NCBI GenBank assembly: GCA_963845565.1
Contig: CAWJSJ010000002.1
Coordinates: forward strand, 2,368,001 to 2,432,000
Direction: 5' to 3'
DNA: 64,000 nucleotides
DNA from: an uncultured Methylomirabilota bacterium
GTDB taxonomy: Bacteria > Methylomirabilota > Methylomirabilia > Methylomirabilales > 2-02-FULL-66-22
The position numbers were made by a program, and so were the translations under genes. A model generated the notes under the pieces. It was not told the DNA's origin. It saw only the letters and a list, made by a program, of their open reading frames with translations, and did not search any database. Within the stretch, counting starts at the first letter, position 1, and the number at the start of each line of letters is the position of its first letter. Shown here in pieces: positions 5,024 through 56,878 of this stretch.

Positions 5024-5846
5024 ATGCGCGGCCGACTGTGGGGACTGGCAGTTTATGTGTTCGTTCTGGGGTTCATCCTGAACCTGCTGGGGATCGTGAG
5101 CCATGTCGTGGTGAGCTCGTTCGCCAAGCGGTGGTTCGGCACCCCGTTTCCCGCGCTCGCTCACCACCGAGTGGTACAGCTACGCCTGGACGGAGTTCGG
5201 CCTCGCCCAGGTCCTCGGGGTGACGGTCTTCGTGGCGCTGACCGTGGTGGTTCTGGCCCTGCTCATGGGGTTCCCGGCCGCGTACATCCTGGCGCGCCGC
5301 AACTTCCGGTGGAAGCCGGTGCTGCTCCTGCTCTATTTTCTGCCGCTGCTCATCCCCCAGATGACCTACGGCATCCCGCTTGCGACCACCATGTTCCGGT
5401 ACGGGATCGGCGGGACCGTGGCCGGCGTCATCCTGGCCGTGATGGTCCCGATGGTGCCCCTGGCCATCTTCATCCTCATGCCCTTCTTCGAACAGATCAG
5501 CGTCAACCTCGAGTGGGGTGCGGCCATGATGGGCGCCAACCGGTTCCAGATTTTCCGCCGCGTCCTCTTGCCGCTCACCCTGCCCGGACTCCTCACGGCC
5601 GGGATCCTCGTCCTCGTGAACACGGTCTCGAACTTCGAGCTGACCTTCCTGGTCTCCGGCGCCGGCTCCCAGACGCTGGTCGTGGCCCTGTTCTACAACG
5701 TCTTCGCGGGCGGGGTCCGCCCCGTCTATTCCGTGGACGCCATGGCCGTGATGTACATGACCATGATCATGGTCCTGCTCCTCATCGCCCTGCGCTTCGT
5801 CCGTCCGACGCAGATGGTCTTCCGCCTCGACCAGCCCAAGCGCTGA
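5024..5846 (+). CDS. ABC transporter permease (PotC-like; frameshift near 5155)
   Basis: Hydrophobic helices; EAA-like loop LEWGAAMMGANRFQIFRRV. Confidence 0.8.
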
Positions 5847-5955
5847 CCGGCCCCACCCATTGGGCTACCACTGAAGCGTGGGGTGGTGGCCTCGCGTGAA
5901 CGGCCGACAGAAAGATCACGTTCCGGCGGGCGGGGCGTTCGTATGGGGGTACGCA

Positions 5956-7029
5956 ATGGGGAACGGTGCACCGAGAAGAGCGAACCCGGAGAGGCTCGAT
6001 CGTTTCGTGTCGTCGGCCTTCCGCGGGGTGGGCGTTCCCCCCGGCGATGCCGACTTGGCCGCCAAGATTCTGGTGGATGCCGATCTGCGCGGAATTGACT
6101 CCCACGGCGTCATCAACCTCCACGGGACCTACATCCGGGGGCTGCAGACCGGGGCCATCAACCCCACGCCGGAGATCCGGGTGGCCCTGGGGAGCCCCAC
6201 CACGGCCTCGGTGGACGGGGGCAACGGGTTGGGAGCCGTGGTGAGCCACCACGCCATGACCGAATGTCTCCGGATGGCCCGAGAACACGGGACGGGGTGG
6301 GCGACGGTCTGTAATAGTCACCATTCCGGAGCGGGTGCCTACTACGTCTTGATGGCGGCCAACCAGGACATGATCGGCCTCCACTCCTCCTCGGGAGGGT
6401 CAACCGTGGCCGCGCCGGGGGGCAGGGGGAGGCTCATCGGAAACAACGTGCTGGCGTTCGCGGCGCCCGGCCGGAAGCACGGCCCCTTCGTGCTGGACAT
6501 GGCGCCGACCATGGCCATCGCCAACAAGCTACACATGCTTCAGTGGGCCGGGAAGCCGATGCCGGAGGGGTGGGCGGTAGATTCCGAAGGGCGGCCCATC
6601 ACGGACCCCAAACGCTACTTCGCAACCGAAGGCGCCATTCTGCCCCTGGGGAGCACCCCCCAGAACGGTGTGCACAAAGGATTCGGACTCCTACTGGTCT
6701 CGGACATTCTCACGGGTCTCCTCTCCGGAGATGGCGGGAGCATGTTCCGCAGAAAAGGCGAGCACACGCATGTCTTCTGTGCCCTGCGCATCGACGCCTT
6801 CCCGACCGGTGGGGACTTCAAGGACTTGATGGACGCCATGATCGAGAAGCTGCATGCAACCCCCACCGTGGGGGCCACGGGCCGGATCCGGTACCCCGGC
6901 GAGCGCGGGAACCTGACCCACCGCGAGCGCAGCGCCACGGGGATCCCCCTCCGCCAGAACGTCGTGGAAGATCTGCAGCGCATGAGCGCGGCGCTACACC
7001 TCTCGCTGGACGATATCTGGGAGCGGTAG
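5956..7029 (+). CDS. Ldh_2 family (malate/L-lactate/ureidoglycolate-type) oxidoreductase
   Basis: ADLRGIDSHG, NSHHSGA, HKGFGL, RYPGE motifs. Confidence 0.9.
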   Translation: MGNGAPRRANPERLDRFVSSAFRGVGVPPGDADLAAKILVDADLRGIDSHGVINLHGTYIRGLQTGAINPTPEIRVALGSPTTASVDGGNGLGAVVSHHAMTECLRMAREHGTGWATVCNSHHSGAGAYYVLMAANQDMIGLHSSSGGSTVAAPGGRGRLIGNNVLAFAAPGRKHGPFVLDMAPTMAIANKLHMLQWAGKPMPEGWAVDSEGRPITDPKRYFATEGAILPLGSTPQNGVHKGFGLLLVSDILTGLLSGDGGSMFRRKGEHTHVFCALRIDAFPTGGDFKDLMDAMIEKLHATPTVGATGRIRYPGERGNLTHRERSATGIPLRQNVVEDLQRMSAALHLSLDDIWER

Positions 7030-7388
7030 CGGTTCGCGCGGCCTGTGGGCGGGTCGCGTGGCCGGTCCCCAGCGACTGCGTCACTTCCTGCCGGAGTACG
7101 GCAAAGCGGCCTGGGGGGGTGCGTTGGTCGCCCTCGGCAATCCCTCTCCATCTGCATTTGCCCTATCCTGCCGTGCCCGCCTTGACACCCCAAGGAGCCG
7201 ATGATAGCGTCCTGGCCGTTTCGAGTGTCCCCGATTTCCGATCCTTGTTTCGGTCATTTCCATGGCAGGTGCGGGTGTCCCAGTCGAGACGCTGGGCCTT
7301 GGTCGCCACTGAATTTCCTCCTCCGTGTTCTGGCCTCCGATCGCATGCCGATGATGTTGTGGCACCTTTCCTGAAGAAGGGGGACTCT

Positions 7389-7949
7389 ATGAGGACATGG
7401 GTGTCGATCCTGGGAGTGTTCATCGTGATCACCGGGATGGGTGCGACGGACTCCGCGCGGCCCGGAGCCGCCGCCACGGACCAGAACGTGGTCGTCAATG
7501 GGAATCAGTCCGTGTCCGTTTCCGCCAACCGGAGCCTCAATGTCGGTGTTGATGACTTCGAGGCGGTGGGGAGGAACCGTACCATCACGGTGGGGTCCAT
7601 GGAGTCAACGACGGTCGGCGCCGGGCAGACGATTCGGATCGGCAGCGACCAACAGATCGCCGTTGGGAGGACACAGACAGTCAGCGTCGGTCGGGACGTG
7701 AATGTCACGGCCGGCGGCAACAAGATGGAGCAGACAGGGGGAAGCGTGATCTACCGGGCGGGCCATACGATGGTGATTGAAGCCCGTGAGGAGATCGTCC
7801 TTCGGACCGGGGCAGCGTCGATCCAGATGAAGAAAGACGGTACGGTCGTCATCCGTGGGAAGGATATAACGATTTTGGGGAGTGGAAAAATCAATGTTAG
7901 GGAGGAGGGAGTGGTTCAGAAGCAGACCCCCGGTGTGCAGTCGAAATAG
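7389..7949 (+). CDS. Secreted protein made of gp5/VgrG C-terminal beta-helix repeats
   Basis: Hydrophobic N-terminus, about ten 8-residue (V/I/A)Gxxxxxx repeats, then EIVLRTGAASIQMKKDGTVVIRG. Confidence 0.7.
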   Translation: MRTWVSILGVFIVITGMGATDSARPGAAATDQNVVVNGNQSVSVSANRSLNVGVDDFEAVGRNRTITVGSMESTTVGAGQTIRIGSDQQIAVGRTQTVSVGRDVNVTAGGNKMEQTGGSVIYRAGHTMVIEAREEIVLRTGAASIQMKKDGTVVIRGKDITILGSGKINVREEGVVQKQTPGVQSK

Positions 7950-9625: not shown

Positions 9626-10342
9626 ATGGCCGTTGTGCGGGGTCGGAAGCTCTACGAGGGGAAGTGGAAGATCCTCTTCGAGACCACGGATCCCGGCCGG
9701 TTGCTCCTACGGTTCAAGGACGTGCCGGCATTCGACCGGGCGGCGGCCCGCCCGACGTTGCCCCGGCGCGGGGCCATGAAGACGCAGATTGCGGCGGCGC
9801 TCTTCACGCTGCTCCAACAGCAAGGGATCCCGACCCATTTCCTGGAGGTGGGCGGCACTCGGGATCTGCTGGTGCGCAGGCTCGAGATGATTCGGTTGGA
9901 GGTGGTTCTTCGGAACGTGGTGGCCGGCAGCCTCGCCAAGCGCCTCGGGATGGAGGTGGGGAGTCCGCTGCCGGCGCCGATCCTGGAGTGGTACTACAAG
10001 AGCGATGCGCTCGGTGATCCGCTCCTGAACGATGCGCATGTCAGCGCGCTGGGTCTTGCCTCTGTCGAGGAACTCAAGGCCATCCGCGAGATGACCTTCC
10101 GCGCCAACGGCATCCTGTTGCCTTTCTTCGCGGAGCGGGAGATCATGTTGGTGGATTTCAAGCTGGAGTACGGGCGGCAGGCCGGCCGGCTGATGCTGGG
10201 GGACGAGCTCACGCCGGACGGGTGTCGATTCTGGGACCGCGCGACGCGCGAGCGCCTCGGCAAGGACCGCGCGCGCCGGAGCCCCGCCCGCGAGGCGGCC
10301 GCGTACCAGGAGGTGTTCCGGCGCATCTGCAGCGGCTGTTGA
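9626..10342 (+). CDS. purC: SAICAR synthetase
   Basis: LYEGK, EVVLRNVVAGSL, LVDFKLEYG, DELTPDGCRFWD. Confidence 0.93.
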   Translation: MAVVRGRKLYEGKWKILFETTDPGRLLLRFKDVPAFDRAAARPTLPRRGAMKTQIAAALFTLLQQQGIPTHFLEVGGTRDLLVRRLEMIRLEVVLRNVVAGSLAKRLGMEVGSPLPAPILEWYYKSDALGDPLLNDAHVSALGLASVEELKAIREMTFRANGILLPFFAEREIMLVDFKLEYGRQAGRLMLGDELTPDGCRFWDRATRERLGKDRARRSPAREAAAYQEVFRRICSGC

Positions 10343-21784: not shown

Positions 21785-22312
21785 ATGACACGCGAGCGGG
21801 GTAGCTTCTGGACGTGGGTGGCGAGGCGCTTGGCGACCGCCCGAGACACCCCGATCGTCCTGGACCGGCGCCAAGCGGAGCGCCGACAACAGCTCCAGCC
21901 TCCAGACGAGGAGCGGCGGCTTACGGACCGTCGGCGTCCGGAAAGCAGCGACCTGGGCGAGGTCGGCGGTTTCTTGGAGGCGGGGATTCATCTCCGGGGC
22001 GTCCTGCAGTTCAGCGGCGCACTCCGCGTCGACGGCCATTTCGAGGGGGAGCAGGTTCGCGGCGAGACGCTCGTCATCGGTGAACACGGATTGGTGAACG
22101 CCGAAATCCGGGTTGAGATTCTGCAGGTCAGCGGTCAGGTGCTGGGGGACGTCACTGCGAAGCGGTGGGTTGAACTCCTCGAGTCGAGCACGGTGACCGG
22201 AACTATCCGTACCCCGCGATTGACGATATGGAAGGGGGCCGTCTTCAACGGGACCTGCGACATGCCCGCCGCACATTCCCCGGAGAGCGAAGTTCTCTCA
22301 CGGCCGGCGTGA
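21785..22312 (+). CDS. Bactofilin (polymer-forming cytoskeletal protein) with Arg-rich N-terminal extension
   Basis: LRVDGHFEG..TLVIGEHGLVNAEI..VELLESSTVTGTI..GAVFNGTCDM. Confidence 0.85.
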   Translation: MTRERGSFWTWVARRLATARDTPIVLDRRQAERRQQLQPPDEERRLTDRRRPESSDLGEVGGFLEAGIHLRGVLQFSGALRVDGHFEGEQVRGETLVIGEHGLVNAEIRVEILQVSGQVLGDVTAKRWVELLESSTVTGTIRTPRLTIWKGAVFNGTCDMPAAHSPESEVLSRPA

Positions 22313-22658: not shown

Positions 22659-22982
22659 TCAGGCAGCGGGAAGACACCGGGCGAGTGCCTCGGCGGTGAT
22701 GTCGTCGTGCGAGGCGCTCCACACGACCACGCCCCGCCGGAAGACGATGATCTGGGGCGACTCGTGTTCTATGCCTGACCGCGCCGCGATCTGCTGGGAC
22801 ATGGAGCGCTGCGCGCGAACGTCCACGAGATACGCCGGGATCTGTGGGTGCTGAAGGAGGAAAGCTTCGACCTCGCCCAAGGCCGTCACGCACGTAGGTC
22901 AGGTTGGGCTATGCTTGTACAAGAACGCACGCTCCGCGGTGAAGACATTTTCCAGTTCGCGCTCTTCGCTAATGCGCCGCAT
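22659..22982 (-). CDS. ytxJ: YtxJ/BrxC-like thioredoxin-fold protein with in-frame TGA at codon 28 (probable selenocysteine, UxxC)
   Basis: ORFs 22899..23090 and 22659..22889 are in the same frame: YKHSPT-TGA-PTC ... GIEHESPQII ... WSASHDDIT; GGAGAGGGG SD; 107 aa. Confidence 0.8.
22868..22885 (-). promoter_or_regulatory. Candidate bacterial SECIS hairpin
   Basis: CGGCCUU-GGGC-GAGGUCG; G-first apical loop 20 nt after the UGA. Confidence 0.55.
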
Positions 22983-23326
22983 GATCCCCTCTCCGACATT
23001 GGCCGCGATGGATGTGCTGGTCCGATTTCGGCCTGTGTATTTATCATTCTTTGGGCGAAGTTTCAATCTGTGGAGGCGGCGCGACCTCACGCGCTCACCT
23101 CTTTTCCACAGATGTCCGACCCTGGCCGCTGAGCCACTGTTTGCTGCCCGCCATTACCTGCGCATAGGACCTCCCATCGAGTCCTGCGGTGGAAAAAGTT
23201 CCTGGCAAACTTTACACCGCCCCGGACCACGGATTTCCCGCGAACCACGTGGCTTTTCCGCTTTGACGACCCATAACCTTTTGCGTTTATGGCTCTCTGC
23301 TTATCGCTCCAGGTGACGATCTCAAA

Positions 23327-23341
23327 TGGCACCGTAATTGC
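23327..23341 (+). promoter_or_regulatory. Sigma54 (-24/-12) promoter
   Basis: TGGCACCGTAATTGC matches TGGCAC-N5-TTGC exactly. Confidence 0.65.
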
Positions 23342-23533
23342 CCTGTATGAATCACGACGAAGAAGGGGGTTAGTCAATCCTGACCCCCGGTCGGCCCCAC
23401 CGGGCCCGCAGTCCTGGCCCTGACACGACACAGCGTGAAGGGGAGGGATCGGAGATGCGGGGAGGGCTCCTGGAGAAGGAGTCTCAGGGGCACTGTAACC
23501 CGGATCGTCATCCGGCAAGAAAGGAGGAGCATC

Positions 23534-23779
23534 ATGAAGTACGGTATCGCAATCACGCACCTGATCTTGGTGCTCACCGTGAGTGGCAGCCTGGCCTTCG
23601 CCGCGACGGAGGTTCCTCGGGTGCCGCCGAAAGGCACGGAGGGCCCGGACGTGCGCGCCAGGGTAGAGCCGAAGGGCCAGGAGGGGCCCGATGTCCGACG
23701 CATCCGTGAAACTGATTGCCACGGCGTGGAAGGGCCGGACGTTCGCCACAATGCCAGCGCCTCTTGTTTCACGCTGTAA
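23534..23779 (+). CDS. Small secreted protein with three GxEGPDVR repeats
   Basis: AAGGAGG SD, signal peptide ending AFA, repeats PKGTEGPDVR / PKGQEGPDVR / CHGVEGPDVR. Confidence 0.75.
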   Translation: MKYGIAITHLILVLTVSGSLAFAATEVPRVPPKGTEGPDVRARVEPKGQEGPDVRRIRETDCHGVEGPDVRHNASASCFTL

Positions 23780-23881
23780 GCCGTTGTCAACGAATTAGTT
23801 GAGCGGAGACATTCCGAAACGGCATAAGGAGCCGTAACGAAATAGAAAGAGATGTCTAGGTTATTTCGTAACGGCTCCTAA
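23777..23881 (+). repeat. Repeat family B copy 4, begins at the TAA stop
   Basis: taagccgttgtcaacgaattagttgagc...gttatttcgtaacggctcctaa. Confidence 0.9.
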
Positions 23882-24193
23882 GGGGCACCCTGCATAGTGG
23901 ATCCCACTGCTGACCGACCGGCCGGGGAGGCGCGGTAACCTCGTCATGACGCGACCGCCTCCCCGGCCTAGCCTCACGCCCAGTCCCCGGTTTCGCGCCC
24001 CAGCCGGTCCAGTGCTCTCTAATCGCGTACGGAGCAGGATGCCCTGGTGAGGGGCCCTGCGCATCTTGCGACTCCCGCTTCTCAAGTGGCTCTGTCGGGC
24101 GCCCCTCGCCGCCGGCTCGTATCAACCGCACAACCATCCGGTGGGGGGACGGTGTTTCCGGATGTTTCGAGATCTTTCCCCACAGGTTTTCTC

Positions 24194-47463: not shown

Positions 47464-47540
47464 GGGCCTTTAGCTCAGCTGGCTAGAGCGCACGCTTGAT
47501 AAGCGTGAGGTCCCTGGTTCGATCCCAGGAAGGCCCACCA
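47464..47540 (+). tRNA. tRNA-Ile(GAT)
   Basis: Cloverleaf in the 16S-23S spacer, anticodon GAT. Confidence 0.96.
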
Positions 47541-47618
47541 CAGGAATTGACGATTGACGATTGACGATTTTCGATTGTTCAATCGGCAATCAAAAATCGG
47601 CAATCGGAAATTTACTGT

Positions 47619-47694
47619 GGGGATGTAGCTCAGTTGGGAGAGCACCTGCTTTGCAAGCAGGGGGTCAGCGGTTCGATTCCGCTCATCTCCACCA
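47619..47694 (+). tRNA. tRNA-Ala(TGC)
   Basis: Cloverleaf in the 16S-23S spacer, anticodon TGC. Confidence 0.96.
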
Positions 47695-55707: not shown

Positions 55708-55784
<77 letters not shown>

Positions 55785-55879
55785 GTCGGAGCGAATTGGA
55801 GATTGCAGATTGTCGATTGAAGATTTCGGGATTGGCACTCCCAATCGGCATTCTGCAATCTGAAATCTGCAATGTACCT

Positions 55880-55957
55880 GCGCCCGTAGCTCAGCCCGGA
55901 TAGAGCAACGGCCTCCGGAGCCGTGTGTCGGGTGTTCAAATCACCCCGGGCGCGCCA
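55880..55957 (+). tRNA. tRNA-Arg(CCG)
   Basis: Cloverleaf, anticodon CCG, CCA. Confidence 0.94.
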
Positions 55958-56045
55958 AGGGATTTTCGATTGAGGATTGTCGATTGACGATTCCGACCGA
56001 AACAATCGTCAATCATCAATCGGCAATCGTCAATTGTAAGGTTGT

Positions 56046-56123
56046 GGTGAGCGTAGCTCAATTGGTTAGAGCACTGGACTGTGGCTCCAGGGGTTGAGGG
56101 TTCAAGTCCCTCCGTTCACCCCA
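56046..56123 (+). tRNA. tRNA-His(GTG)
   Basis: Cloverleaf with G-1, anticodon GTG. Confidence 0.95.
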
Positions 56124-56207
56124 AAGTCGATTGCGATTTCGCGATTGCGGGATTGTCGTGAAGTCAATCGACAATCGTCAATCTGCAATCGTCAATATTC
56201 GGGAGAG

Positions 56208-56284
56208 GCGCCCGTAGCTCAGTCGGATAGAGCGGCTGGCTTCGAACCAGCAGGTCGGGAGTTCAATCCTCTCCGGGCGCGCCA
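56208..56284 (+). tRNA. tRNA-Arg(TCG)
   Basis: Anticodon arm gctgg-ct-TCG-aa-ccagc. Confidence 0.93.
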
Positions 56285-56382
56285 AGCGGGCGTTCACCCG
56301 AATGACCAATGACAAGCGAGCAATGACCAATCGTGATGTTCCGTTGGTCATTCGGGATTGAGAATTCGTCATTGTGTTCGGG

Positions 56383-56458
<76 letters not shown>

Positions 56459-56569
56459 AGAAAAGCATTGTCGATTGATGATTTCCGATTGGCGATTGCC
56501 TGGGGAAAGACATTCAGTGACGGTTCAATCGTCAATCGGCAATCGTCAATCTGAAATGTTTTTACGGAT

Positions 56570-56645
56570 GGGCCGCTAGCTCAGATGGTAGAGCAGCTGA
56601 CTCTTAATCAGCGGGCCGAAGGTTCGAGTCCTTCGCGGCCCACCA
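56570..56645 (+). tRNA. tRNA-Lys(CTT)
   Basis: Anticodon arm gctga-ct-CTT-aa-tcagc. Confidence 0.96.
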
Positions 56646-56794
56646 TCCGTTTCTGTTGACAATCCTGCGCGAGGCAACGAGGGGCGGCGCCGGGCGTCGC
56701 TCGACGCGGATACCTCGCATGTCGTCGGTTTGGAGAGTGCGGGCGAACCAGCCGCGAGGGCGCACAGCAGCTCACACCGAGGCCCTTGCCTCCG

Positions 56795-56878
56795 GCGAGA
56801 GTGGCGGAATGGCAGACGCGTCCCGTTTAGGGCGGGATGGGGTAACCCGTGGGGGTTCAACTCCCCCCTCTCGCACCA
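56795..56878 (+). tRNA. tRNA-Leu(TAG)
   Basis: Long variable arm, anticodon TAG, CCA. Confidence 0.93.

Follow-up and report, generated by a model that had tools for sequence, protein, structure and literature searches.

The closest described relative of the gene considered here is the monothiol bacilliredoxin BrxC (YtxJ) of B. subtilis, which strips bacillithiol from oxidised proteins, as described by Gaballa, Su and Helmann (2021; PMC8113031). The two proteins fall in the same Pfam and NCBIfam family and share the fold of the solved homologue 3IV4, and the redox residue of BrxC occupies the same column after KHS as a UGA codon does in the present gene. Several differences stand beside these similarities: the catalytic residue of B. 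subtilis BrxC is Cys, where the present gene has the UGA codon; BrxC has a CxxS motif, the Ser of which is here replaced by Cys (UPTC); BrxC resides in a Firmicute host, whereas our gene is found in a non-Firmicute; and no counterpart of the Bdr/YpdA partner was found in the genome studied here.

A second set of comparable systems is provided by the Sec-containing thioredoxins, glutaredoxins and Prx-like/TlpA-like selenoproteins that appear in Table 1 of PMC13188914. As summarised there, these proteins have the thioredoxin fold in common with our gene product, Sec takes the place of the N-terminal Cys of a CxxC or CxxS motif, Cys homologues are abundant and the SECIS element lies in the coding region just past the UGA, all as found or proposed in the present case. 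They belong, however, to families other than PF11009/TIGR04019, and their partners are glutathione or thioredoxin reductase, whereas the presumed thiol partner here is bacillithiol. For the SECIS element itself, the constraints given for bacteria are a loop of 3-9 nt with G in the first two loop positions, a stem of at least 4 bp, a spacing of 16-37 nt and an energy of -7.5 kcal/mol or below (PMC13188914, Fig. 2 legend).

In this study, we analysed a gene on the minus strand of the window, by which we mean the whole stretch of 64,000 nucleotides. The gene would belong to a well-known kind, namely thioredoxin-fold proteins with Sec for the catalytic Cys, and, judged from its sequence and those of its relatives, it very probably encodes a Sec-decoded member of the YtxJ/BrxC family.

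Reading frame, family and fold

From 22982 to 22659, the minus strand holds a single frame of 107 sense codons with one internal TGA (22901-22899) and a terminal TGA (22661-22659), and the features of the gene are collected in Table 1. The codons around the internal TGA read TAC AAG CAT AGC CCA ACC TGA CCT ACG TGC GTG (YKHSPT-TGA-PTCV), as the preliminary description had given them. Translation table 11 splits the gene into two ORFs, 22899..23090 (63 aa) and 22659..22889 (76 aa), both of which lie in the gene's frame; the earlier statements that these two fragments together make up one 107-aa product that includes the HESPQ motif, and that gene callers would miss or split it, have both held up, the nearest public proteins being 73-78 residue C-terminal pieces named YtxJ.

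Table 1. Features of the ytxJ/brxC-like gene; positions are those of the window.
Feature	Position	Strand	Comment
ytxJ/brxC-like gene, 107 codons plus terminal TGA	22659..22982	-	YtxJ/BrxC-family redoxin, one in-frame TGA read through (proposed)
Start codon ATG	22982-22980	-	27 codons ahead of the TGA
Shine-Dalgarno-like GGAGAGGGG	22986..22994	-	3 nt upstream of the ATG
Internal TGA, candidate Sec codon (residue 28; KHSPT-U-PTC)	22899..22901	-	Cys column of homologues
TGC = Cys31, candidate resolving cysteine (UxxC)	22890..22892	-	TGC in 30 of 44 unique full-length TGA forms
Candidate SECIS hairpin	22868..22885	-	7-bp stem, loop GGGC, 20 nt after the UGA
HESPQ motif, residues 73-77, family-invariant	22752..22766	-	Homologue alignments
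Terminal TGA, ordinary stop	22659..22661	-	Majority of relatives also stop with TGA

The read-through product, written with C in place of U at residue 28 in the profile query, matches Pfam PF11009 (BrxC) over residues 4-100 with 95.9 bits (cut-off 24.2) and NCBIfam TIGR04019 (YtxJ) with 93 bits (cut-off 77.25). Both scores exceed the curated cut-offs, which confirms the YtxJ/BrxC identity proposed earlier. The sole solved relative found by sequence is 3IV4 (phmmer E = 1.2e-14), a "putative oxidoreductase" that carries KHSETCPIS at the aligned site. An AlphaFold model built from 44 aligned sequences reached a pLDDT of 95.7, and a Foldseek search with this model returned 3IV4 as the top PDB match (TM 0.87, rmsd 1.5 A), with thioredoxins next. 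Residue 28 of the model lies in a loop (25-30) between a strand (19-24) and a helix (31-44), and this placement, together with the matches to 3IV4 and thioredoxins, shows that the TGA falls where a thioredoxin fold has its active site. The product is thus a YtxJ/BrxC-family thioredoxin-fold protein. The monothiol CxxS arrangement is a trait of a subfamily, not of the family, and it does not occur in the window gene, which has UPTC.

These results bear directly on the reading that gene callers follow, in which the true product is only the 76-residue ORF that opens with GTG at 22889. Many YtxJ versions of 73-78 residues do stand in public protein sets, but on the model the active site, along with the initial strand and helix, lies outside this fragment, its GTG has no ribosome site ahead of it, and the region upstream is conserved in frame, with the family profile matched from residue 4, so that we regard this reading as very improbable. 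Relatives with the TGA mostly have an ATG 27 codons before it, and many of them have GGAG or GGAGG shortly upstream. At the other end of the gene, TGA is likewise the terminator in 39 of the 49 relatives whose stop could be determined, which indicates that UGA is still a stop codon and has not been reassigned genome-wide.

The gene stands alone at its locus. A bactofilin gene (PF04519, 84.7 bits) at 21785-22312 on the plus strand converges on it, and an oxidoreductase with DRL, SAF and NAD-binding domains begins at 24047. The roughly 1 kb upstream (23000-24000) holds overlapping ORFs only, including one of 220 aa at 23087-23749 on the minus strand, and none of them has a family match. A promoter scan at the locus gave no sigma-70-like promoter, and a terminator scan gave two terminator-like sites, both on the opposite strand only. 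Elsewhere in the window, seven tRNA genes (Pro, Arg, His, Arg, Arg, Lys, Leu) are clustered at 55708-56878, and a tRNA-Ile/tRNA-Ala pair at 47464-47694 suggests an rRNA operon.

TGA and cysteine codons among relatives

A search of 61 genomes of the same order found full homologues only in the window's genus, in seven genomes including the source genome (G000). Five of these seven have one in-frame TGA (G000, G009, G013, G012 and G006), and the other two have none (G005 and G020). In the alignment, the five TGAs share one column (KHSPT-TGA-P), where G005 and G020 have TGC. Extending the search to 251 genomes of the phylum added only two matches, a short one in G014 and a weak one in G133; the totals of 61 and 251 include the unpublished genomes G055 and G028, neither of which matched. 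The gene is therefore patchy, being present in 8 of 21 genomes of the genus, with one weak match among the 230 other genomes of the phylum. The short match in G014 (L036:1453-1644, plus strand) is a Cys-form ytxJ (KHSPRCPIS) in which a large internal deletion joins the active site to the C-terminal tail, and it is probably a remnant.

In other phyla, Cys stands at the column in 79 of 80 loci, mostly within KHSxxCPxS, although the search pattern itself carried Cys and the loci were ranked by tblastn, so that 79/80 is no measure of the frequency of Sec forms. The placement of the TGA at the redox Cys, as claimed in the preliminary description, is borne out by these 79 loci and the two Cys-form genomes of the genus, as is the alternation of TGA and Cys for which a search among relatives had been proposed.

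Further TGA forms were obtained from metagenome contigs with the DNA pattern KHSPT-TGA-CC. Examination of 80 of the 94 pattern matches yielded 47 intact or contig-truncated TGA homologues and 33 chance matches; since the flanks of the pattern are fixed, TGA forms with other flanks are missed. These sequences give 41 distinct 60-nt segments after the TGA, and 44 unique full-length TGA forms were compared. One metagenome TGA form (L172) has an extra stop within HESPQ and several odd residues, and may be a decaying copy or come from a poor contig.

The residue three positions after the TGA differs between the forms. It is encoded by TGC in 30 of the 44 unique full-length TGA forms, with Ser codons in the remainder, and in the 77 Cys forms it is an AGC or AGT Ser codon in 56 and Cys in five. 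The UxxC site proposed in the preliminary description accordingly fits the window gene (UPTC), but UxxC is not the sole form, as UxxS forms exist too. KHSPTCSIC is the motif of the nearest full-length public proteins, P0004 (64% identical) and P0006 (62% identical). A quick tree divides the Sec forms into one group of 32, which also encloses these two Cys forms, and another of 11; this tree has many open forks and is compatible with one or two origins of Sec. Another public protein, P0002 (168 aa, from a contig of 1223 bases), has a TPR-like N-terminus ahead of what corresponds to the final 76 residues of the gene (96% identical), and may reflect a chimeric assembly or a rearrangement.

The TGA was also compared across independent assemblies. 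Two of the metagenome contigs that were retrieved, L194 and L192, keep the TGA and match the window at 99.5% identity; contigs from two metatranscriptome libraries, which cover 22667-22989 and 22801-22959, have it unchanged; and so does a contig from a soil DNA run that covers 22715-23100 and shows only two differences, both synonymous. The runs with covering contigs are X15, X16 and X11, and coverage by contigs from RNA libraries is no proof of transcription or translation. An error for TGC or TGT in sequencing or assembly is thereby refuted for practical purposes: the assembly does contain indel-type breaks, for example in selB, but an error at this site would have to be a substitution and not an indel, as the preliminary description had argued, and the TGA recurs identically in assemblies and runs of independent origin, as well as in four further species of the genus.

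A pseudogene created by nonsense mutation would be a different explanation for the same TGA. Other broken genes are said to lie in the window, and the deleted Cys-form remnant in G014 and the further stop in HESPQ of L172 also speak for it. However, sequences that share only about 50% identity still have the TGA, with an open frame on either side of it, and among the 44 unique full-length TGA forms dN/dS is 0.56 upstream (codons -24 to -7) and 0.29 downstream (codons +12 to +75). Conservation extends to the start codon and the ribosome site, and where other samples differ from the window gene, the changes are synonymous. This explanation is therefore strongly disfavoured.

A conserved hairpin and the selenocysteine machinery

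On the minus strand, the hairpin after the TGA is formed by a 5' arm at 22885-22879, a loop GGGC at 22878-22875 and a 3' arm at 22874-22868. Two of its seven pairs are G-U, 20 nt separate the A of the UGA from the first loop base, and the hairpin alone has an energy of -7.8 kcal/mol; the stem, G-first loop and spacing reported in the preliminary description are all reproduced. The features that it shares with the consensus bacterial SECIS model are its 4-nt loop beginning with GG, its 7 bp, its 20-nt spacing and its energy, all of which lie within the published bacterial constraints. The consensus model, however, has low specificity in the G+C-rich DNA of the window: a scan with the constraints passed 29 of the 41 Sec forms but also 27 of the 77 Cys forms, and of 2460 synonymous shuffles 53% passed. 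Nor is the hairpin unusually stable. When 66 nt were folded and compared with controls, there was no excess of stability (z = +0.62), and a median of 37% of synonymous-codon shuffles were at least as stable as the native sequence. The minimum free energies of Sec and Cys forms (-11.9 vs -10.1 kcal/mol) are confounded by relatedness. A search against Rfam gave no match at E values up to 10.

A clearer signal is provided by synonymous sites. Ala+6 is encoded by GCC in all 41 distinct TGA forms, whereas the Cys forms use GCG (31), GCC (23), GCA (12) and GCT (9), and both Cys forms from the same genus (G005 and G020) have GCG. Similarly, all 41 distinct TGA forms encode Glu+9 by GAG, compared with 32 GAG and 20 GAA in the Cys forms. 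Codon +5 always reads NCG in the 29 type-A sequences, despite encoding Thr, Ala or Ser, and is varied in the Cys forms. Over codons +5 to +10, which make up the core of the hairpin, dS among the TGA forms is 0.45, compared with 1.02-1.16 elsewhere.

The alignment points in the same direction. Of its cells, 69% pair, compared with 39-47% when the partner is slid. Pair 18-33, formed by the third bases of codons +5 and +10, is G-C in 30 rows, U-G in nine and unpaired in none; four core pairs never vary, and the U-A pair 22-29 is lost in 20 of 39 rows. Covariation at the hairpin is thin, the lone double-sided pair change having probably arisen through few events, and a second pairing register showed no covariation over the whole alignment. 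A second type of hairpin, found in 12 of the 41 segments, has its register offset by a single base, a loop of 3 nt (GGU, GUC or GGC) and a U that is either bulged or mismatched; this register-shifted type among the relatives departs from the consensus SECIS model. Overall, the hairpin keeps its position among the relatives, its synonymous sites are frozen and it is under constraint at the RNA level, in answer to the earlier question of whether relatives keep the TGA together with the hairpin.

Comparable hairpins accompany other in-frame TGAs in the source genome. Its selD has a 7-bp stem with a GGC loop 17 nt after the UGA, and three of seven AhpC/TSA-family TGA genes have stems of 7-8 bp with loops GGUC, GGC and GGC at 17, 20 and 17 nt. 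Each of the seven in-frame TGAs in AhpC/TSA genes is followed by a hairpin. It is the frozen synonymous sites and the likeness to these other TGA hairpins of the genome, and not stability, that support the hairpin of the window gene as a candidate SECIS element.

The machinery for Sec was searched for in the same genome, and selA, selB, selC and selD were all found. The selA match scores 578 bits; tRNA-Sec scores 76 bits and lies on contig 4 at 9777-9867; and selD has its own in-frame TGA, in CAG-U-ASK. The selB gene adjoins tRNA-Sec on contig 4 at 5502-7391 (loci L005 and L009) and has three frameshifts within its first 200 codons, at least one of them beside a run of G, which may be assembly indels. 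Among the five relatives of the genus that were searched, selA is present in all, carriers of the Sec and of the Cys form alike, and selB is intact in three (G020, G009 and G006), cut by a contig end in G013 and, at E 1e-60, gave no match in G012.

The source genome also looks rich in selenoproteins. Of 17 matches to the AhpC/TSA family on its contigs 2 and 4, seven have one in-frame TGA at redox motifs such as TFVU, WUPVC, STUPHC and similar. A Sec-containing formate dehydrogenase was considered as well (TIGR01553 FdhA search) and rejected, as the sole TGA lies upstream of the gene. For comparison, the review PMC13188914 gives 63 predicted selenoprotein genes for one Methylomirabilota MAG.

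Reading of UGA28 without selenium, by a near-cognate Cys- or Trp-tRNA, or termination at most passages with the downstream conservation owed to some other RNA or protein constraint, would account for part of these data, in that the hairpin is no more stable than shuffles and selB of the source genome is frameshifted in the assembly. Nevertheless, the genus retains selA, selB, tRNA-Sec and a Sec-containing selD, the UGA swaps specifically with Cys at the catalytic column, and the synonymous freezing coincides with a hairpin that matches those of other in-frame UGAs in size, loop and spacing; we therefore consider this explanation improbable. The decoding of the UGA as Sec, as originally proposed, is supported by the alternation of UGA and Cys, the Sec machinery and the conserved hairpin, and remains the preferred reading.

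Proposed seleno-bacilliredoxin function and implications

Under Sec decoding, translation would start at the ATG at 22982, and the hairpin 20 nt downstream of UGA28 would recruit the SelB/Sec-tRNA(Sec) complex, so that Sec would be inserted there in place of termination. The second UGA, which has no such hairpin, would then end translation to give 107 residues. The selenolate of Sec28 might attack mixed disulfides between proteins and bacillithiol; in the UxxC form, Cys31 could resolve the intermediate as a selenenylsulfide, and in the UxxS relatives a second thiol would be expected to do so.

The genomic context is compatible with this scheme. The source genome has bshC (PF10079, 332.8 bits), the presence of which makes the predicted role of a seleno-bacilliredoxin plausible, and in a control search PF10079 matched only in B. 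subtilis, Thermus and Deinococcus. The bshC gene is also present in 18 of 20 relatives of the genus and in 41 of 61 genomes overall, a total that includes the unpublished G055 and G028. YpdA/Bdr (TIGR04018) gave no match above the cut-off in the source genome, the best reaching 51.9 bits against 339.9. On these grounds, a seleno-bacilliredoxin is a plausible reading of the protein, with its activity, substrate and reductant predicted from sequence and genomic context.

With respect to novelty, Deng et al. (2026) are said to have predicted many selenoprotein candidates in groundwater MAGs. In our own search of full-text papers, no report that joins YtxJ/BrxC (DUF2847) with selenocysteine was found. 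PF11009, TIGR04019, YtxJ and BrxC are absent from the 119 selenoprotein families and subfamilies in Table 1 of the 2026 review PMC13188914, and the main texts of PMC12013277 and PMC9312934 contain none of the names of the YtxJ/BrxC family.

Taken as a whole, we see the case for a wider interpretation as evenly balanced. In this interpretation, YtxJ/BrxC would be a selenoprotein family not yet catalogued and the first link between bacillithiol and selenium; it would comprise two lineages, one mostly UPxC and the other UPxS, each with its own variant of a coding-region SECIS element, and Sec and Cys would have been swapped repeatedly within one genus. The UxxC form might, moreover, be recycled by a different reductase, a notion that draws on the fact that no Bdr/YpdA was found.

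If Sec is inserted, a new family would join the list of selenoproteins and selenium would enter bacillithiol-based thiol repair. The closely related versions in one genus, Sec beside Cys and UxxC beside UxxS, would offer a natural experiment on the benefit of Sec to a thiol-disulfide exchanger. In addition, the hairpins of the source genome provide a compact local SECIS pattern with which finders that are weak in G+C-rich DNA may be tuned. Finally, the public YtxJ stubs lack the active site, so that the complete enzyme is missing from redox inventories of these bacteria of wetlands, soils and fresh water.
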